Shown: positions 3,828 through 57,866 of the stretch, one piece after another
Layout: each line of letters begins with the position of its first letter
Numbering within the stretch: position 1 is the first letter of the stretch
DNA from: a virus
Strand: one strand, 5' to 3'
UHGV virus genome: UHGV-0180032
DNA length: 64,000 nucleotides
Notes under the pieces: model-generated
The model's database searches: none
What the model saw: the letters and a program-made list of their open reading frames with translations, nothing else
What the model was told of the DNA's origin: nothing
Position numbers and translations under genes: made by a program

Positions 3828-3940
3828 ACCCGAGAGAGATTCCTTCAGACCACGTCATTAACACGCTTAAGTTAGACACCACCTCTTTATTCAAGCAACG
3901 CAGTACCCGCCCTATCACTTATCAGGAAGCGCATGACGAA

Positions 3941-22071: not shown

Positions 22072-22107
22072 AGATATATATTACCTTAGTGAGATTACGC
22101 TGTAATC
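22072..22107 (+). promoter_or_regulatory. phage promoter motif (AGATATATATTACCTTAGTGAG) plus dyad gattac-N5-gtaatc
   Basis: One of five copies of the motif; contains TATATTAC; sits ~40 nt upstream of ATG 22145. Confidence 0.45.
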
Positions 22108-24607: not shown

Positions 24608-26116
24608 ATGCAACAGTATTTTGAAATTCCGTCGTTAGACGCGACCATTCGCAAACCAATAATCGATGGCGTTATACAACGTGTACTTAATGAATCAGGT
24701 ATTGATAAAGCAGCGGTTGTTTTCCTTGATGAATTCAATAGCGCACATCAGCCCGATTCCACGTTAGGCGACGGTACAGAAGTTGAGTACAGCTCGCCTG
24801 AAAAGGTGTATGTTGAAGTAGAAGAAGAACGCGATGAGTGGGCCAGAATCAATCGTCAGGTTGGTCAACAAGCCGAACCGTACTTCTTTGAAAACTCCGT
24901 CGATCAGGTGCGTGCCTGGCCCGTTAGAACGATGTATAACGTAACGGTAACGTTACGACGTACCAGTGCTTCTCGTGATGAGTTATTGCGCTGGACAAAC
25001 CGTTTAGACTCGTTAGTGGACATGGGTCGTTATTCGACGATGACCGAGTCAGAAGCGTTTTATTATATTCCGAAACCGGCACTGAAGTTATTGAACGCCT
25101 GTTATGTTGCCGCAGGGACTCGTGTACCGACGTTTGATGATTTTAAAGCCTATCTCAAGGCGTACTTTACCCCCGACGTGTTCCGCGCTGCTAACGTTGC
25201 CGGTGGACAGGAATCTATTGCGGTACGCTATGCACCTACTCGCTTAGAGACCGTATACGACGTTCAGACACCTGCCTGGGATAAAGACGAGAACCACTGG
25301 GAAGCCACATTCGTTGTGCGTTTCTCTTATCAGCGTCCTGAAGAGATTGTGGTTTCGTATCCGTATATCATCAACCAGACACCGCTTCCTGATGAATACT
25401 GGCCAGAGATAGACCCACCGTGGGTGTCTAACGAAGAACTGGTGTATCGACATCCGCAACAAAAGAATCTCGATTCAACGTGGTGGATTAACGAAACCCG
25501 TCAGTATATTCGTTTACCGTATCTGCTGTCACCGACAGAACAGTTCCACCGTACGCATTCCCCGTTAAAAGATAAACTCCTGCACGTCTTCGGCACAGAC
25601 GTTGTATTCGATGAAGACAACATGAGCTCACCGAAAGTGTTATCTGTCGAGGATTTGCCGTACGAGTGGAATCCAGATTTGTTGCCGTACATCGAACACT
25701 GTCGAGTAATAGACCCTACCGGACAGACGGGCGTCTTCCGTGTAGAGCTGTTCGAAGAAGGCCAAATCATCGAACCCCGTTTCTATCATTGGGAAGACAA
25801 TACCTTCTTTTTGAAAGGACGTGATTTAAAAGTTAACAAGAGTTACTACCTAACCGAATCGGTGATGTTCGACTGGCGAGGGATGAACCTGTGGCCACTC
25901 CAGCTTTATCCTAAAGCCGCGAAAGTGTTGATAGAATGGTTATTCCCAAAATGGGATGTACCGGACTGGTGGTGGGATAAACCCGTATTACCGCCGAGTG
26001 TTATCGACGACATTAATAAACTGATTCCTAACGTAGAAGCCCGCGTCTTGCTGACGGTGCTGAACTCGACCGTGATTACCATGCGAGGGACAGAGAATGC
26101 TCAAAGCGAAGCGTGA
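24608..26116 (+). CDS. hypothetical protein (502 aa), first gene of a five-gene operon
   Basis: ATG with AAGGAA upstream; no terminator until 30165. Confidence 0.7.
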   Translation: MQQYFEIPSLDATIRKPIIDGVIQRVLNESGIDKAAVVFLDEFNSAHQPDSTLGDGTEVEYSSPEKVYVEVEEERDEWARINRQVGQQAEPYFFENSVDQVRAWPVRTMYNVTVTLRRTSASRDELLRWTNRLDSLVDMGRYSTMTESEAFYYIPKPALKLLNACYVAAGTRVPTFDDFKAYLKAYFTPDVFRAANVAGGQESIAVRYAPTRLETVYDVQTPAWDKDENHWEATFVVRFSYQRPEEIVVSYPYIINQTPLPDEYWPEIDPPWVSNEELVYRHPQQKNLDSTWWINETRQYIRLPYLLSPTEQFHRTHSPLKDKLLHVFGTDVVFDEDNMSSPKVLSVEDLPYEWNPDLLPYIEHCRVIDPTGQTGVFRVELFEEGQIIEPRFYHWEDNTFFLKGRDLKVNKSYYLTESVMFDWRGMNLWPLQLYPKAAKVLIEWLFPKWDVPDWWWDKPVLPPSVIDDINKLIPNVEARVLLTVLNSTVITMRGTENAQSEA

Positions 26117-27467
26117 TAAGCCGTCAACTTTTGAACCTGTAGACCGGCCTATCCCCGAGTTAAACAAACCCCAGGACGGCGTAAAAGAAACCACCAATAT
26201 CGTTACGCAACCTACACGTACAACCGTTACTGACTTAGACCGTATTCCAAAGCAATACCTAATGAAGTATCTGGAAGGGTCAGCGTGGACGGTGGACTTC
26301 TTTAACTTCCTGAAAGGAAGAAACGACGCTAAGAAGTTTTTCGATTCGAAAGTGCTTACACCTGACCAACAGGTAGAGAAAATCATCGGGTTGGAACTGC
26401 GTGTAACGACACCACTCGACCGTAGCCAGGACAGCACGAACAAAACGTTCAGCATGTCCGGTGCTGCAACAATTGCAAACTCGATTATCCCTAACGAGGG
26501 ATGCTTTTTCATCGCTCCTATCGGTGATGGTCGTTTTGCGTTGTTTAACGTTACCAACGTTGTGCGTATGTCGAATAACAAAGTCGCGACGTACAACATT
26601 GAATACACCTTACTTTTCGAAGTTGACCCAGAAACCGCAGAAACGATTCGTCGTTGCACCGTACGTGAATACTACTACGTTGCAGAGCGTGCCTGGACAG
26701 GTGGCGATACACTTCTCACACCGAAAGAGTACCGTGCGTTCCTGGAAGTCGTTGACGCGATTGAAGACATTGAGCAGACGTATGTAAAACGTTTCTACGA
26801 CGGTGAAACGGCCACGTTGCTGTTCCCACACGATCGGCAGAGTGATGGTTTGCGCAGCCGTGCTTACTACGACGTGTTTTTAGCGTTGTTTGTGCGTGCA
26901 CTGGGGTTACGTACCGTAGGTAAGGATATTCAGATTTATCCGCATCCGCCGATGAACGTGGAAGACATTGAAACGGTGTGGACAGCGCTGCTGCAACAGT
27001 CACCAACGTTCTTAGCAGATTACAAACGTGACAGTACGGTGTGGCAACCGAAAACTTTCCGTACGATGCAACATCGTAACTCGGTAACGTGGTCGTTGAT
27101 CTCTGATACCCGATTCTTTACGGAAGAGTTAAAGCCAGGTTACGGGATGGCACAACGTTTCCCTGGTCAGTGGCCAGAATGGAAACCGTTTGAACCGGTT
27201 GAAGTTGAAAACTATCGTGGGAACGAAGGGGAGTCTATCCCAGCTTTCCTACCGCTGTCCTTTAAACCGTATTTGCTGAGCGAGACGTTCTACGACGGTT
27301 CTTACAGTTCGTTGTTGGAATACGGCTTGTACTTGTACCTGCATAAACGTCCGCTGCCGTCGGTAATTGCGTTAAAACTGTTTGAGGAAGTTTATAAGCT
27401 CCCGAAAGACGCACAGTTCTATTACATTCCGATGGTGTATCTGCTTTTAAGATATTCGAGGGATTAA
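26097..27467 (+). CDS. hypothetical protein (456 aa)
   Basis: ATG 26097 overlapping upstream gene by 20 nt. Confidence 0.65.
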   Translation: MLKAKRDKPSTFEPVDRPIPELNKPQDGVKETTNIVTQPTRTTVTDLDRIPKQYLMKYLEGSAWTVDFFNFLKGRNDAKKFFDSKVLTPDQQVEKIIGLELRVTTPLDRSQDSTNKTFSMSGAATIANSIIPNEGCFFIAPIGDGRFALFNVTNVVRMSNNKVATYNIEYTLLFEVDPETAETIRRCTVREYYYVAERAWTGGDTLLTPKEYRAFLEVVDAIEDIEQTYVKRFYDGETATLLFPHDRQSDGLRSRAYYDVFLALFVRALGLRTVGKDIQIYPHPPMNVEDIETVWTALLQQSPTFLADYKRDSTVWQPKTFRTMQHRNSVTWSLISDTRFFTEELKPGYGMAQRFPGQWPEWKPFEPVEVENYRGNEGESIPAFLPLSFKPYLLSETFYDGSYSSLLEYGLYLYLHKRPLPSVIALKLFEEVYKLPKDAQFYYIPMVYLLLRYSRD

Positions 27468-30203: not shown

Positions 30204-30327
30204 TACTCGTAAATGCGTCTTAGACGCTGTTTTACACCTTAAGACGATTAATGGTGTTTAAAAAATAAAAGGTCGTCAGAATGCGATACAGCGCGTTTTA
30301 GAGGGTGATTTAATTAAAATATTTTCA

Positions 30328-30366
30328 GATATATATTACCTAGGTGAGAGAATTACGTAATACTCA
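30328..30366 (+). promoter_or_regulatory. phage promoter motif (AGATATATATTACCTAGGTGAG) plus palindrome ATTACGTAAT
   Basis: Second copy of motif; 10-bp perfect palindrome 30352-30361; ~30 nt upstream of ATG 30397. Confidence 0.45.
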
Positions 30367-30396: not shown

Positions 30397-30540
30397 ATGA
30401 TTTCTGTAAAACACAAAAAAGCTATCTTCGCTGTTGTTATCGCTGTTGTTCTGGGTTGCCTGTACCTGGATATCGATAAAGGCTACGACACTTGCATCGA
30501 CAACGGTAATTCCGTTGCACAGTGCACTGGTCGTGGTTAA
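30397..30540 (+). CDS. small putative lipoprotein (47 aa)
   Basis: SD AGGAG upstream; signal-like MISVKHKKAIFAVVIAVVLG followed by Cys (lipobox-like VLGC); own promoter motif and terminator; below ORF-track size cutoff. Confidence 0.5.
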   Translation: MISVKHKKAIFAVVIAVVLGCLYLDIDKGYDTCIDNGNSVAQCTGRG

Positions 30541-31415: not shown

Positions 31416-31460
31416 ACCCCTAATCCCGAAAAGGATTAGGGGTACACTTTATTTATTTTC
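31416..31460 (+). terminator. rho-independent terminator
   Basis: stem acccctaatcc/ggattaggggt followed by a T-rich tail. Confidence 0.65.
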
Positions 31461-31486
31461 GCAATTTCAACATAGGAGAAAAGTTC

Positions 31487-31645
31487 ATGAAACATGAACA
31501 GTTGTTTCAAAGGTTAAACGAGTTGTCCGTAAAACAGCTCGAATTTCAACGAAGGGTTAGTGAAATAGCGCAACCAACGTTAACTCAGCCCAAAGTTGCT
31601 TACCCAAGAAACACCCAGTTGATAGTTGAAAGGAGAAGTAACTGA
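31487..31645 (+). CDS. small protein, tandem paralog 1 of 3 (52 aa, ends ERRSN)
   Basis: ATG with AGGAGAA 6 nt upstream; paralogous to the next two small genes; G-rich hairpin follows; below ORF-track size cutoff. Confidence 0.45.
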   Translation: MKHEQLFQRLNELSVKQLEFQRRVSEIAQPTLTQPKVAYPRNTQLIVERRSN

Positions 31646-31649
31646 TAAA
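31628..31649 (+). repeat. 22-nt repeat gaaaggagaagtaactgataaa, identical to 31950..31971
   Basis: Exact identity at the 3' ends of two otherwise diverged paralogs. Confidence 0.9.
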
Positions 31650-31799
31650 AAAACAAGGGGGTGCTGTCACACCCCTTATCATAGCTTTATCTTTTCGAAA
31701 GAGAAGATAAAGCAGTAGGGACTGCGCCAACAGTCCTTACTTGTCATCGCTATTACTAAACGTGATAGCACAATTCTAATTTGTTAGAGGCGATCAGAA

Positions 31800-31967
31800 A
31801 TGTTCGACAGTATTACGCAAATTTTTAATACTACCGTAAACAATCACGCTCAGCAAGCGAGGTTTAATGAACGACTAAGAGAAGTTCAACAATTAGGATT
31901 AAATAAAAGATTAAATTCTTCCAATAATCCTCGAGTACAGATCTTCACCGAAAGGAGAAGTAACTGA
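31800..31967 (+). CDS. small protein, tandem paralog 2 of 3 (55 aa, ends ERRSN)
   Basis: ATG with GAGG upstream; shares Q.FN...RFN.R...LGL pattern with paralog 3; hairpin follows. Confidence 0.45.
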   Translation: MFDSITQIFNTTVNNHAQQARFNERLREVQQLGLNKRLNSSNNPRVQIFTERRSN

Positions 31968-31971
31968 TAAA
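31950..31971 (+). repeat. 22-nt repeat, identical to 31628..31649
   Basis: Exact identity read directly. Confidence 0.9.
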
Positions 31972-32065
31972 CACAAGGTTCGCTGTTGTAGCAGCGAACC
32001 TTTTACAACACCATTACGTTTCCGTAATGGATTTCTTTAATCACCCTACAAAGAGGGCTTATGCC

Positions 32066-32137
32066 ATGAACGATACGGTGCCAACGCATAAAGACGTTGG
32101 CGTTTCTTACAACGTTACTAAAGGTAATGAAAAATGA
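32066..32137 (+). CDS. candidate 23-codon leader ORF translationally coupled to paralog 3
   Basis: ATG with AGAGGG upstream; stop TGA 32135-32137 overlaps ATG 32134-32136 of next gene; begins with the same ATGAACGAT as that gene. Confidence 0.3.
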   Translation: MNDTVPTHKDVGVSYNVTKGNEK

Positions 32138-32304
32138 ACGATTATCAATTACAGATGTTTAATGCGGCGATGCGTAACCGTGAAAAACAAATTCAGTTCA
32201 ACCAACGCATGGATGAATATGTTCGTCTCGGTCTTGTTGCGGCACCTAAAACATCTAATAACCAGAATATACAGCAACCCTATGTAAGGAGAACTGGCTA
32301 CTAA
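32134..32304 (+). CDS. small protein, tandem paralog 3 of 3 (56 aa, ends VRRTGY)
   Basis: ATGA-coupled to upstream leader ORF; AGG-AGA pair near stop as in paralogs 1 and 2; G-rich hairpin 32316-32337 follows. Confidence 0.45.
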   Translation: MNDYQLQMFNAAMRNREKQIQFNQRMDEYVRLGLVAAPKTSNNQNIQQPYVRRTGY

Positions 32305-32442
32305 TTAACTAATACAGGGGGTGCACTACCACCCCCTACTTAGTTCAGTAGTTGTCTTTCGTTCATAATTATTAGGTGACTTGTTTTTTTTTGCTTTTCG
32401 GGACGCATAAGGGGTCGTAGGGGGAGCCGAAGCTCCCCAGAC

Positions 32443-34005
32443 TCAAAAGAGTTCGTCTCCCATACCGCCTGTAAAGACGTTAATCGACGATGCAGTCACT
32501 GTTTCTTCTTTATCGCAATCCCAAGGCAGAATGCCAACTTCACGGAAAGGTATTACTGTATAATGGTAAGCTTCTTTAGTATCGATAATTGTACGGTGTT
32601 TACCACGTTGTACTTCTAAGTAACTATGTCCATTGACAACACGTTTGTTAAAATACATCTCACCGTCAGCTTCGTTATCCAAGCTGGAGCAGTTATCGTA
32701 AAGACCGCGACCTGGTAAGTTCTTACAGAAACTTGCTGGGTCTAACGCTTTTAATTTTTTGCCTTCTGGTGAGATTTGGTGTGGTGCTAACAAGAAACCA
32801 CGGTTACGTACTACCTGGATGTTTCGAGCGATACGATAAATTTCTTTAATGTCGCTACCGGCAATCCCGTTACCGTGACCTGCTTTACTGATAGTCCCGA
32901 AATAGTCTCCGCGAATCCCAGCTACATGATAACCTCGACGCTTTAAGTCCAGTATTAAGTCGTTTAAGTAGTGTATTTTAAAATCTGAGTTTGTGTGTTT
33001 CTGAAAGATGTATTCCCAACCGTTAGCCCGCATTTTACTACAGAGGTAGTCCGACATTTTTGTGTTGTGTAAAGCTTTCTCTTCGTCGGTAGCGTTTTCA
33101 GAAGCAACCATAACCGGTGCTTCACCTTCAAAATGGCCGTAGAGCGCTTGGTACGCATACGCCAAGTTAACGTCCAGTTCGTTCTCTAAACTTAAATCGA
33201 GAATAACCGGCTGCAAATCCCCTTTAACGTTTTCCATTACTTTTTCAGGTGTATTGAATACCGGAATACTGATAGACAACAACAGACTAAAAAGTGATTT
33301 ACAGTTAAAGGGCAGTGCAGGCATTAACCAAAGTTCTTCGGTAATCCCTTTGTTACAACCCAGCATCTGGTTAATGGCTTTCCATCCGGTACGTAAACCG
33401 TTACCCGCTGCTTTCTTACTGATGGAGTCGAACACGTGTACGAACGGTGCACGGTTATCGGTAATAAGCTCGCCTACGAGTGAGGGAATCTTATTATGAG
33501 AGCGTTCACTGAACGTAGAGAGACTATCTCTGAGGTCGTTGAGCGCCGTTTGTAAATCAACGCGCGTTTCGGTTCCGTTCAGTGCGCCTAACGTACGACC
33601 TAATTTTTGTTTCAGTTGTACGCCTTGAATAGCTTGACGTAATTGGAAGTAGTATTGTGCTACTTGACGGTTAAGATGCTCGATGCGTGCTTCTGGTTCT
33701 TCTGGAATATCATCTTCCAGGAATTTGGTAATCGTATCGTATAGAGGACGTATTTGCGTAGTGGCCAACTTCAAACGTTTCATGACGTTTGTGTGGTCGT
33801 AAGGCATACCGCCGTCTATGATGGATGTGATGATATCCTTGATTTCGACGAGGGCGGCACGTTCGTCACCTTCCTCTACGTAATCAGGAAGCTTAGCCTC
33901 TAACAGCACTTTTCTTATGACCTCATGATCCTTCTCAGGGTCGGTCAACAGACTTTCAGTGTATAGTGTGGCTAATGCGGTTATCAACATCATTTTGTTA
34001 TTCAT
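32443..34005 (-). CDS. hypothetical protein (520 aa) with possible N-terminal signal peptide
   Basis: Single minus-strand gene between plus-strand units; ATG with AAGGA upstream; N-terminus MNNKMMLITALATLYT is signal-like. Confidence 0.65.
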   Translation of the reverse strand: MNNKMMLITALATLYTESLLTDPEKDHEVIRKVLLEAKLPDYVEEGDERAALVEIKDIITSIIDGGMPYDHTNVMKRLKLATTQIRPLYDTITKFLEDDIPEEPEARIEHLNRQVAQYYFQLRQAIQGVQLKQKLGRTLGALNGTETRVDLQTALNDLRDSLSTFSERSHNKIPSLVGELITDNRAPFVHVFDSISKKAAGNGLRTGWKAINQMLGCNKGITEELWLMPALPFNCKSLFSLLLSISIPVFNTPEKVMENVKGDLQPVILDLSLENELDVNLAYAYQALYGHFEGEAPVMVASENATDEEKALHNTKMSDYLCSKMRANGWEYIFQKHTNSDFKIHYLNDLILDLKRRGYHVAGIRGDYFGTISKAGHGNGIAGSDIKEIYRIARNIQVVRNRGFLLAPHQISPEGKKLKALDPASFCKNLPGRGLYDNCSSLDNEADGEMYFNKRVVNGHSYLEVQRGKHRTIIDTKEAYHYTVIPFREVGILPWDCDKEETVTASSINVFTGGMGDELF

Positions 34006-34555: not shown

Positions 34556-36841
34556 ATGAAAGATACCCGAATCTCTAATTTAGAGAAACTCGTAGAAGCC
34601 GGTACTAGTCTGGCCCAAAACGTCATCGGCAACAACACCGCCAGCGAAATGTGGAATACGATTGTTGCAGGCGAGTCCGTACGCAGCAACGCAAAAGTGT
34701 TTGGCGCTCTGCGTGACGAAGCATCACAGCACTATGCCAACGCTTTTGGTGGCAAGAAAATGTCTCATGCTGCGACTGTCGCCTCCGCAATGATTCTGGG
34801 CGCAGCTAACCACGGTAAAGACCTGCAAGAACGTGTTGCCCAGGAATACGCTAAGCCGGAATTCCACACCAAGTATAACCTGGATATTGGTATCCCTGGT
34901 GCGCAAGGTGGTGACTGGGGTCGTGAGCGCATGGTTGTTGCTCAGGAATACTACAGCAACAAAGACTACGACAAAAACCTGGGCCTGACCTGGACCCTGA
35001 ACGTACGTGCTCTGGAAACTCAGTCCAAGTTTGCTGAAACACTGTTCCCGACCATTACCGTTGACACCAACGATGTTGGTATTACCGTACGTACTAAAGT
35101 GACTACCGTTTCTCGCGGTATCATGCACGCGCTGCTGAGCAAAGACGTGGTTGAAGACCATCGTCGTCCGCTGCACAACGCACTGACTGACCACACCGTT
35201 CTCCAGGACGAAGCGATCAACATCGTTCCTTACGTAATGGAAACCGGTGAAAACCAGGAATACTTCGTAAGCGAAGAACTGGTTCCGAACGAAACCGTTC
35301 GCCTGGGTCGTGTACCTCCGTATCCGACTAACTACCTGAGCTTTGCAAACGACACGCTGAACCTGTTCCAGCTGTCTGCGCATCCGGGTATCGTTCAGGA
35401 AGGTTACGATGAAACTGATGAAATCGCACCGGGTTGTGCTCTGGGCAGCCTGCTGATTTCTGTACGTAAACCGACCGAAGAAGCGAAAGCGGGTAAATTC
35501 ATCAAACTGCACGTTCGTGACATGCAGTTCGCAACCTTCCAGCGTCCTGCTGAAGGTGACGGCCGTGAACTGGTTCTGCAATTCCGTCGTACCGCGTTCT
35601 CTCTGAATGCGAAAACTACTGACTGGACTGGTGCAGCTATTCCGGCTCTGCAAGCACTGGGTCAGAACTCCTACACCCTGCGCTACGTTATCACCATCAC
35701 CATGTCCCTGTTCACCAGCGGCCAGTTCGGTGGTAAAGTAGACATTTCCGGCCACAAACTGGAAATCGAAGGTCTGTACGATGCAACTGGTAACAAAGTT
35801 GATACCAAGTCTGGCACCGGTAAAGTTATCCTGGACGGCCTGAAACTCGAACTGATGGGCTGGCGCTTCGATGGTACTCGTACCAACGAAAACCGTCGTT
35901 CCCAGGGTCTGCTGCTTGACCCAATTTGGGAACAGGAAAACTACAAACTGCAATACGGTTCTCCGATTCTGACCAAGTCTCCGGTTGGTGTTGAATACGA
36001 CGACACTGAACGTCTGGACGACCTGATCTCTGCGGTGAACATCCGTAACGAACAGCTGGCGATTACTCAGACGCTGTCTTACACCGAAGCAGTACGTAAC
36101 GCAGCCGCTGCGATGATCACTCCGTGGGACAAACCGGCTATTCGTGGTCTGGGCCGTCACTGGGTTGCTCCGTGGTTCAAAGAGTCTGACTACAAAGTCG
36201 ATGAAGTTGTTCAGTCTCTGGATACCAAAGAAGCGCTGATCAACGCTCGTCAGGGTCTGTTGCAGCGTATCGGTAGCCAGGTAACTCAGGCTATCCAGGA
36301 TTCTCGTTTCATTCCTGCACTGCGCCTGCTGACCGCTGATCCGGACATTCTGCCGAAAGTTATCATCGCAACTGACGAACCGACTGCATCTATGCTGCTG
36401 CTGGTTCAGGGCGACCAACGTCTGCTGGGCGACCGTTATGAATACGAAGTCGTTACCACCAACGATGACCGCTGGCGTATCTACAACGCAGCTGACGATT
36501 CCTGGACTCGTCGTCTGCAATGGTTCCTGAAAGTTCCGACTGCGGACGATGGTTCCTACTGCGTACTGAACTGGGGTAACCACTTCTGGTCTCCGATCAT
36601 GGTTACCAACATCAACATCCAGCGTAACGGTTCTACCTCTAAAGAACTGGCTGTACAGCCGCGTAACGCGCATATCTGCCACTGCCCGATCACTGGTCTG
36701 ATTTGGGTTAAAGGCATCACCAAACTGGTTGAAGAAAAACTGGCTTACAACGTTTCTGTAGAACAGAACGGCCAGAAACAAACCGAAGGTGGTGTAGCAG
36801 GTAATGTTGCTGGCGACGGTAAAGACAAAGCTGGTAAATAA
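34556..36841 (+). CDS. major capsid protein candidate (761 aa, phiKZ-like size class)
   Basis: Very strong host-optimal codon bias (ctg, cgt, ggt, acc, aaa); length matches jumbo-phage major capsid proteins; strong terminator follows; product assignment is by size and expression signature only. Confidence 0.55.
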   Translation: MKDTRISNLEKLVEAGTSLAQNVIGNNTASEMWNTIVAGESVRSNAKVFGALRDEASQHYANAFGGKKMSHAATVASAMILGAANHGKDLQERVAQEYAKPEFHTKYNLDIGIPGAQGGDWGRERMVVAQEYYSNKDYDKNLGLTWTLNVRALETQSKFAETLFPTITVDTNDVGITVRTKVTTVSRGIMHALLSKDVVEDHRRPLHNALTDHTVLQDEAINIVPYVMETGENQEYFVSEELVPNETVRLGRVPPYPTNYLSFANDTLNLFQLSAHPGIVQEGYDETDEIAPGCALGSLLISVRKPTEEAKAGKFIKLHVRDMQFATFQRPAEGDGRELVLQFRRTAFSLNAKTTDWTGAAIPALQALGQNSYTLRYVITITMSLFTSGQFGGKVDISGHKLEIEGLYDATGNKVDTKSGTGKVILDGLKLELMGWRFDGTRTNENRRSQGLLLDPIWEQENYKLQYGSPILTKSPVGVEYDDTERLDDLISAVNIRNEQLAITQTLSYTEAVRNAAAAMITPWDKPAIRGLGRHWVAPWFKESDYKVDEVVQSLDTKEALINARQGLLQRIGSQVTQAIQDSRFIPALRLLTADPDILPKVIIATDEPTASMLLLVQGDQRLLGDRYEYEVVTTNDDRWRIYNAADDSWTRRLQWFLKVPTADDGSYCVLNWGNHFWSPIMVTNINIQRNGSTSKELAVQPRNAHICHCPITGLIWVKGITKLVEEKLAYNVSVEQNGQKQTEGGVAGNVAGDGKDKAGK

Positions 36842-57828: not shown

Positions 57829-57866
57829 AGATAGATATTACCTTAGTGAGATTACGCTGTAATCTC
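57829..57866 (+). promoter_or_regulatory. phage promoter motif (AGATAGATATTACCTTAGTGAG) plus perfect inverted repeat GAGATTAC-GCT-GTAATCTC
   Basis: Near-identical over ~75 nt, including 5' UTR, to the copy at 22072; ~35 nt upstream of HTH gene ATG 57902. Confidence 0.5.

Follow-up and report, generated by a model that had tools for sequence, protein, structure and literature searches.

Hyperplastic regions of T4-type phages consist of ORFan cassettes flanked by promoter early stem-loops (PeSLs) (Arbiol et al, 2010, PMC2839356; Comeau et al, 2014, PMC4122927). For bacterial genes more generally, selection for strong pairing with ribosomal RNA has been described 9 to 22 nt before stop codons, and slowing of the ribosome for accurate termination has been proposed as its role (bioRxiv 10.1101/2020.07.24.220731). 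Features that recall both systems are found in the virus genome UHGV-0180032, of which we analysed a stretch of 64 kb (hereafter, the window). It contains three small-protein genes in tandem, P1, P2 and P3, each with a Shine-Dalgarno (SD)-like pair of rare Arg codons, AGG AGA, shortly before its stop and a hairpin shortly after it. A first-pass annotation had likened this layout either to a translation-coupled attenuation module repeated three times or to a family of small proteins of the kind used by phages for host takeover or anti-defence. With a probability that we put at roughly 0.6, the locus is a hyperplastic accessory-gene array, that is, a lineage-specific and hypervariable set of genes for tiny basic proteins; it is not a transcription attenuator. 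Judged by its genes, the window belongs to a phiKZ-like jumbo phage near Salmonella phage SPN3US (Seoulvirus).

The array lies between a gp70-like Zn-ribbon gene on the left and a convergent gene for a DnaB-like helicase on the right. Using the helicase as an anchor we collected 35 related contigs, and compared in detail the 22 loci of the window's own group, defined by helicases at least 93% identical (contigs and loci compared with the window are labelled L002, L005 and so on up to L036). In this group we distinguished at least seven subtypes of the small gene, named a to g, in addition to the type represented by SPN3US gp71 and gp72. The 22 near-identical loci displayed 13 architectures: a-b-c (the window), a-c, a-d-e, a-d-b-e, f-b-e, f-b-c, f-c, d-c, e-c, c alone, b-g, and two with truncated copies. 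Phages carrying a-b-c, a-d-e, a-d-b-e or f-b-e are separated by a helicase synonymous divergence (dS) of merely 0.03-0.08. The order of the cassettes was constant (a/f, d, b, e, c/g), so that most of the differences look like independent deletions from a longer array, together with some replacements. Exchange between subclades is indicated as well, since type e copies from two subclades are more alike (dS 0.14-0.27) than the flanking helicase genes (dS ~0.7). Copy number ranged from 0 to 4, with one or two copies in Seoulvirus isolates and none in Asesino, phiEaH2 and more distant relatives. The family is restricted to this one site, as tblastn returned at most two adjacent copies per phage record, all of them in the interval between the gp70-like gene and the helicase. 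Such rapid gain and loss among near-identical genomes agrees with the earlier suggestion that these are accessory or host-interaction genes.

All three open reading frames (ORFs) of about 55 codons reported before are present (52, 55 and 56 codons long without the stop; Table 1), and their paralogy was borne out by two routes. P2 and P3 are clear paralogues by BLASTP (E=3e-9). P1 gave no pairwise BLASTP match; against a family hidden Markov model (HMM) built without type a it scored 16.1 bits (E=4.6e-7), while 200 shuffled sequences reached at most 10.3 bits, which marks it by its sequence as a distant family member. Over 20 orthologue pairs the ratio of non-synonymous to synonymous substitution rates (dN/dS) was 0.07-0.5, mostly 0.1-0.25, with many synonymous differences, indicating that the ORFs are maintained as proteins. 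Orthologues of P1 were identical or 98% identical in L004, L020, L027 and L036, one pair differing at one synonymous and one non-synonymous site; P2 gave dN/dS values of 0-0.5 against L025 and L027; and P3 differed from its counterparts in L005 and L006 mostly at synonymous sites. This substitution pattern marks all three as translated genes, and the family to which they belong is lineage-restricted.

Two peculiarities of the window are readily placed within the same recombination regime. The 23-codon ORF that precedes P3 and overlaps its start as ATGA, noted in the first-pass annotation as a coupled leader starting with ATGAACGAT, is present as described. However, it is not a conserved coupling element but a deletion scar. 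Positions 32011-32074 are collinear with the hairpin, the 5' untranslated region (5'UTR), the ribosome-binding site (RBS) and the first three codons (ATGAAC.AT) of intact type e cassettes in L020, L021, L025 and L027, and at 32075 the homology switches to the type c 5'UTR of L005, L006 and L030. The leader ORF is thus a chimeric frame, left where a type e cassette was deleted and open by chance as far as the start of P3. In L005 and L006 the corresponding stretch has no ATG and carries a frame-breaking indel of 1 nt, and in some other contigs (P0002, P0004, P0006) the leader is fused in frame to P3. The second peculiarity, the exact identity of 22 nt at the 3' ends of P1 and P2, was also confirmed. 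It had been attributed to gene conversion or to selection at the RNA level, a reasonable pair of explanations given that AGGAG is retained in relatives in different codon contexts; for the tract as a whole, the sequences compared make gene conversion or recombination between cassettes the most likely origin. In agreement with this regime, a related array carries a swapped 3' end (a ...SNLPSWWS tail on type a in P0008), and orphan 3' ends were left behind after deletions in L005 (GAAAAGAGGAGTGAACACTACTAA) and L035 (TTGAAAGGAGTG...TAATAG).

The spacers between cassettes are stacks of up to four near-perfect hairpins, which we named T1, H2, H3 and H4. The GC-rich hairpin claimed after each gene is there in all three cases, lacking a proper plus-strand T-run; T-runs are lacking in most hairpins of the locus, and some have one on the opposite strand. 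The T1, H2, H3 and H4 modules recur in 17 copies across related arrays, with T-runs in some copies only. The idea that H2 and T1 are genome-wide repeats was discarded, as both are confined to the array within the window; H2 occurs there once and has 17 copies in related arrays. H3 keeps its pairing: among 18 variants, 100% of the positions are paired, and both sides have changed at 7 of the 11 pairs. Comparison of near-identical phages also revealed loops that form exact reverse-complement pairs (cgaaaa/ttttcg, cgccaa/ttggcg and tatagg/cctata, among others). We counted nine of these pairs, spread over five hairpin families, one of which is the terminator of the gene upstream of the array; in the window the hairpins concerned are T0, T1, H3, the H3-type hairpin after P2 and H4' (counterparts in L005-L036; Table 1). 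The T0 loop, cgaaaa in the window, reads ttttcg in L020, L021, L026 and L035, and T1 is inverted as a whole in L006, L025 and L036. These changes look like frequent template-switch inversion, a mutation that inverts loops and homogenises stem arms (PMC8794818). It follows that the pairing is real, but that covariation alone is no proof of selection. As loop orientation appears to be irrelevant, roles as a terminator, a 3' stabiliser or a recombination substrate fit better than sequence-specific riboregulation. The exception is H2 (UUUUC-GAAA-GAGAA...), whose sequence, and not just its structure, is conserved from the window clade to SPN3US-type phages (L002, positions ~3868-3905) and whose loop is not inverted; H2 may be a protein-binding or promoter element. 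Scans of the region against Rfam (E<=10) and for tRNAs returned nothing meaningful.

Table 1. Features of the small-gene array and its surroundings, in window coordinates
Feature	Position	Strand	Description
Transmembrane protein gene	30397-30540		47 aa, one transmembrane segment, C-terminal C-x2-NGNSV-x2-CTGRG motif
T0, terminator-type hairpin with T-rich tail	31416-31443	+	ends the gp70-like Zn-ribbon gene; left border of the array
P1, type a small-protein gene	31487-31645	+	52 aa, isoelectric point (pI) 10.4; own SD AGGAG at 31474-31478
22-nt tract	31628-31649 (P1) = 31950-31971 (P2)	+	exactly gaaaggagaagtaactgataaa
AGG AGA (Arg-Arg) of P1	31631-31636	+	stop after 2 further codons
T1 hairpin	31656-31677	+	AGGGGGTG n6 CACCCCTT; A-run upstream, weak plus-strand tail
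H2, 13-bp AT-rich hairpin, GAAA loop	31684-31713	+	sequence-conserved spacer element
H3, 11-bp hairpin	31714-31741	+	directly adjoins H2
H4, 8-bp hairpin	31749-31769	+	precedes the RBS of P2
P2, type b small-protein gene	31800-31967	+	55 aa, pI 11.6
AGG AGA of P2	31953-31958	+	inside the 22-nt tract; stop after 2 further codons
H3-type hairpin after P2	31975-32002	+	AAGGTTCGCTGT tgta GCAGCGAACCTT
Remnant of deleted type e cassette	32011-32074	+	H4' hairpin 32011-32030, type e 5'UTR and RBS, start ATGAACGAT at 32066-32074
Leader ORF, 23 codons	32066-32137	+	starts ATGAACGAT; ATGA overlap with the start of P3
Type c 5'UTR	32075-32133	+	hairpin 32077-32104 (stem CCAACG/CGTTGG; TCAACA/TGTTGA in L005); SD-presenting hairpin 32113-32129
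P3, type c small-protein gene	32134-32304	+	56 aa, pI 10.0
AGG AGA of P3	32287-32292	+	stop after 3 further codons
T1 hairpin after P3	32316-32337	+	AGGGGGTG cactac CACCCCCT

A search profile made from the three window proteins and the two syntenic SPN3US ORFs, gp71 and gp72, retrieved 46 small proteins, nearly all encoded on contigs of up to 220-245 kb, and all 46 lack both a Pfam domain and an informative name. When 1.84 billion cluster representatives were scanned in full with HMMER, only 9 family clusters came up, which confines the family to this lineage of enterobacterial jumbo phages. Likewise, searches of Pfam, PHROGs, NCBIfam and PDB sequences with the family proteins led to no named family, in line with the earlier statement that the proteins cannot be assigned to a described one. 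The profile phrog_18219, of no known function, was matched by 9 of the 14 aligned relatives, exclusively SPN3US-type ones; the three window proteins themselves had no direct PHROG match at E<=0.01, phrog_18219 included. Nor did the window sequences find a match in the phage collection, at the DNA level or by single-protein tblastn. The link to SPN3US is one of synteny and profiles only: in both clades the genes lie at the same place, with the gp70 homologue on one side and the helicase on the other, and hhalign joins the two clades over the helix with 88% probability (E=3e-6). The family is new in the sense of uncharacterised, with the Seoulvirus branch alone existing as an unnamed PHROG.

Family proteins have 45-65 residues and are hydrophilic, rich in Gln and Asn, and strongly basic (pI 9.8-11.7). 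AlphaFold2 run on P3 with the family alignment gave one helix over residues 3-31 (predicted local distance difference test, pLDDT, ~85) followed by a disordered tail. The helix is predicted to be amphipathic and to carry an invariant F-x-x-R core, which sits inside the conserved family motif [KQ]Q-x-x-F-[NQ]-x-R-[VLM]-x-E. The end of the tail is conserved too, as a hydrophobic and then dibasic stretch, [IV]-[FIL]-[TN]-[EK]-[KR]-[KR]. A prohead-protease cleavage site of the form S/A/G-x-E in the tail was considered and dropped, since G-G-E fits the SPN3US type only and not the window proteins.

The AGG AGA pair lies near the stop in all three genes, as had been reported (Table 1). In the long genes of the window, AGG and AGA make up 2.5% and 7.7% of 1084 Arg codons, and AGG-AGA accounts for 2 of 83 Arg-Arg dicodons. 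When the last 35 nt of the 36 genes without a closely following gene were scored for pairing with the anti-SD of 16S rRNA, P1, P2 and P3 took the top three places (-9.2, -8.7 and -8.7 kcal/mol; background probability of <=-8, 2.4%), although, being paralogous, they are not independent draws. Among relatives, an SD-like motif is found in most subtypes, but not in d and f, and it is weak in g. Types a, b and c have AGG AGA or AGG AGG (Arg-Arg); the P3 pair itself reads AGG AGG in L036 and AGG AGA TAA in L005 and L006. Type e has AAR AGG AGY (Lys-Arg-Ser). The Seoulvirus clade has xTA GGA GGT GA (Leu-Gly-Gly-Asp/Glu) seven codons further upstream, a perfect match of 9-10 nt to the 16S 3' end (AGGAGGUGA). 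Across nine distinct sequences of the Seoulvirus type, all four synonyms occur at the Gly codon immediately before the motif, whereas the Gly codons within it are GGA (7) or GGG (2) and then GGT (8) or GGC (1); the Leu codon has A as its third base in 8 of 9, although the genome prefers GGT and CTG. The AGGGGG exceptions would still pair via G-U. This restricted synonymous choice inside the motif, next to a freely varying Gly codon, argues for selection on the RNA. Inspection gave no support to other uses of the motif: no start codon stands at a workable spacing for an internal SD to drive, no slippery site in frame would allow a dnaX-type -1 or prfB-type +1 frameshift, and there are no matched take-off and landing codons for bypassing of the T4 gene 60 type. 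Folding of five cassettes revealed no consistent conserved pairing partner for AGGAG, be it the 5'UTR, a CCUCC-like arm or an antiterminator.

Concerning the phage itself, the ORF at 34556-36841 matches the PhiKZ_MCP profile (E=1.6e-207) and is the major capsid protein gene; its nucleotide identity to Erwinia phage Asesino, SPN3US and relatives is 78-83%, and the phage collection held no closer capsid-gene record. The minus-strand ORF at 32443-34005, the helicase neighbour, matches a divergent DnaB-like ATPase (divDNAB) and the PHROG 'DnaB-like replicative helicase', and the ORF at 26097-27467 encodes the head-tail joining protein. In SPN3US, gp70 is essential and not a virion protein (PMC5105663). 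Contigs of 220-227 kb near-identical to the window were found in gut metagenomes and in E. coli and Shigella assemblies. One close relative, L036, is deposited as a circular 'plasmid' of 221,873 bp from the clinical isolate E. coli 98232 (NZ_CP173450.1), which fits persistent virulent jumbo phages being present in bacterial assemblies; 'Seoul-like persistent phages' have been reported in bacterial isolates (bioRxiv 10.1101/2024.12.31.630880). The Prokaryotic Genome Annotation Pipeline (PGAP) calls one of the two small genes of L036 and overlooks type a.

We also noted a 23-nt AT-rich motif, AGATATATATTACCTTAGTGAGA, in three intergenic plus-strand copies in the window (22072-22094, 30327-30349 and 57829-57851), each upstream of a plus-strand gene block and each followed by a small hairpin; shuffled sequences contained zero matches. 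It resembles AT-rich early-promoter motifs described in phiKZ-like phages (PMC7598289) and is a candidate early promoter of the virion RNA polymerase. Downstream of the copy at 30327 come, in order, the 47-aa membrane protein gene, the gp70-like gene and the array. By contrast, TTTATTTATTTT, after T0, was rejected as a promoter: 22 matches were found in the window where 13 are expected, and 2 of 100 shuffles reach 22. On inspection it appears to be the T-rich tail of the T0 terminator. Three observations stand apart from the array. The 47-aa membrane protein is kept in all relatives, array-less phages included, and its gene invariably precedes the gp70-like one. The non-coding stretch 32384-32438, immediately 3' of the helicase gene, combines a T-run, an invariant ACGCATAA and a hairpin, GGGGAGCC-GAAG-GCTCCCC; it is kept out to SPN3US and Asesino with a compensatory stem change, independently of the presence of the array. 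Finally, a 685-aa ORF runs antisense through the major capsid gene (34724-36781, minus strand), and is probably a compositional artefact.

Each cassette consists of its own 5'UTR and RBS, one ORF and a hairpin stack of T1, H2, H3 and H4. In the model that we favour, the content of the array would turn over by deletions and exchanges with breakpoints in the repeated hairpin modules and at short microhomologies, and this turnover would account both for the tract shared by P1 and P2, through conversion or recombination, and for the leader ORF, as the stub of a lost type e cassette. AGG AGA would be part of an anti-SD-complementary element that most subtypes keep near the stop. If selected at the RNA level, the element would detain or slow the ribosome at termination, immediately before the 3' hairpin, which might serve termination fidelity, the protection of the 3' ends of very short cytoplasmic mRNAs, or both; should the element be functional, slowing or anchoring of ribosomes at termination is the most economical reading. 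The proteins would most likely be individually dispensable and partly redundant; their site of action would be the host cytoplasm, and their target a host component that is variable or contains nucleic acid. At low confidence, their evolutionary behaviour and composition suggest dispensable host-interaction factors for takeover or counter-defence, possibly binding RNA or ribosomes.

Several points weigh against this picture. The host-interaction role is drawn from evolutionary behaviour and composition only, and gp71 and gp72 of SPN3US are not mentioned in the paper on its virion mass spectrometry and essential genes (PMC5105663) or in that on head structure and assembly (PMC5694885). There is no sigma70-like site upstream of any cassette and no copy of AGATATATATTACCTTAGTGAGA inside the array; the cassettes could be read through from the candidate promoter at 30327, or could use middle or late promoters, which are unrecognisable by sequence in these phages. 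The 'compensatory' changes in the hairpin stems could arise mechanically by template switching. As for the SD-like element, a cassette must be able to do without it, since types d and f have none and type g has only AAGGUGA; it stands between 2 and 31 nt before the stop, on codons that are not homologous between the two clades; drift of the [KR][KR] tail between AAR and AGR could by itself produce the AGR Arg codons; and its occurrences are not independent, owing to paralogy and gene conversion. Setting these points against the evidence from codon choice, we consider the odds that the element is selected at the RNA level to be about even.

The alternative for that element is that AGG AGA merely encodes the C-terminal dibasic motif, that its codons spread by AAR-AGR changes, gene conversion and common descent, and that the RNA motif does nothing. 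Homologous tail positions indeed read KK, KR, RK, RR, KS and KN across subtypes, with AAR as well as AGR codons, and this account would also cover the subtypes lacking the motif, the 3' end that P1 and P2 have in common through conversion, and the variable spacing. It explains less well why the rarer codon AGG is preferred to AGA at the first position in every member of a, b, c and e, why type e preserves AGGAG by following AGG with an AGY Ser codon, why the Seoulvirus clade has an independent match to AGGAGGUGA at different codons with restricted synonymous choice, and why its two exceptions still pair through G-U; an incidental motif is therefore a possibility that we take seriously but regard as somewhat doubtful. 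A different and improbable role is that the proteins are RNA- or ribosome-binding regulators of their own locus, acting on H2 with its GNRA-type loop, on H3 or on the SD-like element after the manner of arginine-rich peptide/boxB systems or translational autorepressors. The very basic, hydrophilic, single-helix proteins, the conservation of the H2 sequence between the clades and the fact that proteins and hairpins always travel together would suit it. Nevertheless, the proteins resemble no RNA-binding family, the helix holds just 3-4 basic residues and no Arg-rich motif, cassettes without an upstream H2 or H3 exist (P1 in the window, gp72 in SPN3US), and the Nus factors required by N-type systems are not expected inside a phage nucleus. 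We give slightly less weight still to a device directed at the ribosome, in place of a set of ordinary accessory genes. Here, very short mRNAs with an unusually strong 16S-complementary element before the stop, a hairpin after it and basic peptides of tunnel length would together trap or hold host ribosomes, or bring the peptides to them, and so bias translation during infection or persistent carriage by a nucleus-forming phage. If that long shot were true, diversification of the array would track variation of the host target.

The earlier proposal of three attenuators, in which pausing at AGG-AGA would decide termination at the downstream hairpin, can call on short ORFs with rare codons near the stop, a hairpin 10-12 nt past it, and the ATGA-coupled ORF upstream of P3, but we consider it very unlikely. 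No plus-strand gene follows that could be regulated, since the 3' end of the helicase gene is at 32443 and the next plus-strand gene starts from 34019. Unlike leader peptides, the ORFs show purifying selection at the protein level from end to end, with a core that is conserved and fold-like; the leader ORF is the non-conserved scar described above; the hairpins mostly lack T-runs, and folding revealed no conserved antiterminator alternative; and loops, or even whole hairpins, can be inverted without loss. Moreover, Seoulvirus is a member of the Chimalliviridae, whose phage nucleus keeps transcription apart from translation (PMC13282480). In Seoulvirus-type phages, replication and transcription take place within this chimallin-built compartment, from which ribosomes are shut out (PMC13282480; bioRxiv 10.1101/2024.12.31.630880), so that transcription and translation are not coupled, and chimallin is encoded in all 299 Seoul-like genomes examined (bioRxiv 10.1101/2024.12.31.630880); by analogy, they are presumably uncoupled in the window phage too. 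Least probable of all, and already close to refuted, is the view that the ORFs are not genes and that what matters is a non-coding repeat, such as a hairpin array or a small-RNA locus. Dense hairpins and conserved spacer modules are what it would predict; yet synonymous differences are numerous and dN/dS stays well below 1, the start codons and RBSs are kept, the amino-acid profile persists across clades whose DNA no longer aligns, and Rfam has no match.

Read as an accessory-gene array, the locus bears on several questions. Seoulvirus-like jumbo phages are models of nucleus-forming phages and candidates for therapy, persistence inside E. coli and Salmonella isolates was recently reported for them, and their accessory genes are almost entirely uncharacterised. 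The array is a compact, easily deleted hotspot, and differences in content between phages that are alike in other respects are the signature of genes at the interface of phage and host. It is thus a defined target for screens by knock-out or antisense, and one for the annotation of small proteins because PGAP misses some of the copies. As the SD-like motif is kept in three codon contexts, the family offers a clean natural test case for the function of such sequences next to stop codons. In addition, the flipped hairpin loops illustrate template-switch mutation clearly for the genome of a phage.

How the locus relates to described systems depends on the feature compared. With trp and his leader-peptide attenuators and with stalling at rare Arg codons it shares a short ORF, AGG or AGA by the stop and a hairpin just downstream; it differs in having no regulated downstream gene and no alternative structure, in peptides that are conserved as proteins, and in transcription that is presumably uncoupled from translation in this phage family. 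With the general stop-proximal pairing to 16S rRNA (bioRxiv 10.1101/2020.07.24.220731) it shares strongly SD-like last codons with no downstream gene to initiate. However, the published signal is weak and genome-wide, whereas the one seen here is strong, specific to the family and absent from the other terminal genes of the phage, and the motif of the Seoulvirus clade lies outside the published window of -9 to -22. Close in kind are SPN3US gp71 and gp72, which match the window genes in slot, size, helix with a Q-F-N-Q-R core, basic tail and downstream hairpin, and likewise carry an internal anti-SD-complementary motif. Their tails read K-G-L-G-G-[DE]-I-x-F-N-K instead of the ...I-F-T-E-R-R-S-N of the window type, and their SD-like element lies ~31 nt before the stop in Leu-Gly-Gly codons and not in Arg-Arg codons. 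In organisation, the nearest parallel is with the PeSL regions of T4-type phages, where a hotspot flanked by conserved core genes is likewise filled with small, dispensable genes of unknown function, a regulatory stem-loop module recurs at the borders of each gene, and the indels and replacements between near-identical phages map to these modules. The variability by which such regions are recognised is found here as well, with 13 architectures in 22 loci at a helicase dS of 0.03-0.08 and 0-4 copies. Breakpoints in the array lie in or beside hairpin modules and at microhomologies; PeSL recombination additionally yields mini-circles. PeSLs contain a strong sigma70-like early promoter, which the array lacks, as it lacks the AGATATATATTACCTTAGTGAGA motif; PeSL genes are unrelated ORFans spread over several regions, whereas the array genes are paralogues of one family at one locus; and the array spacer is a stack of up to four hairpins, unlike a PeSL. 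With the same logic but no sigma70 promoter, with paralogues, and with a multi-hairpin spacer, the locus works like a PeSL region without being one.

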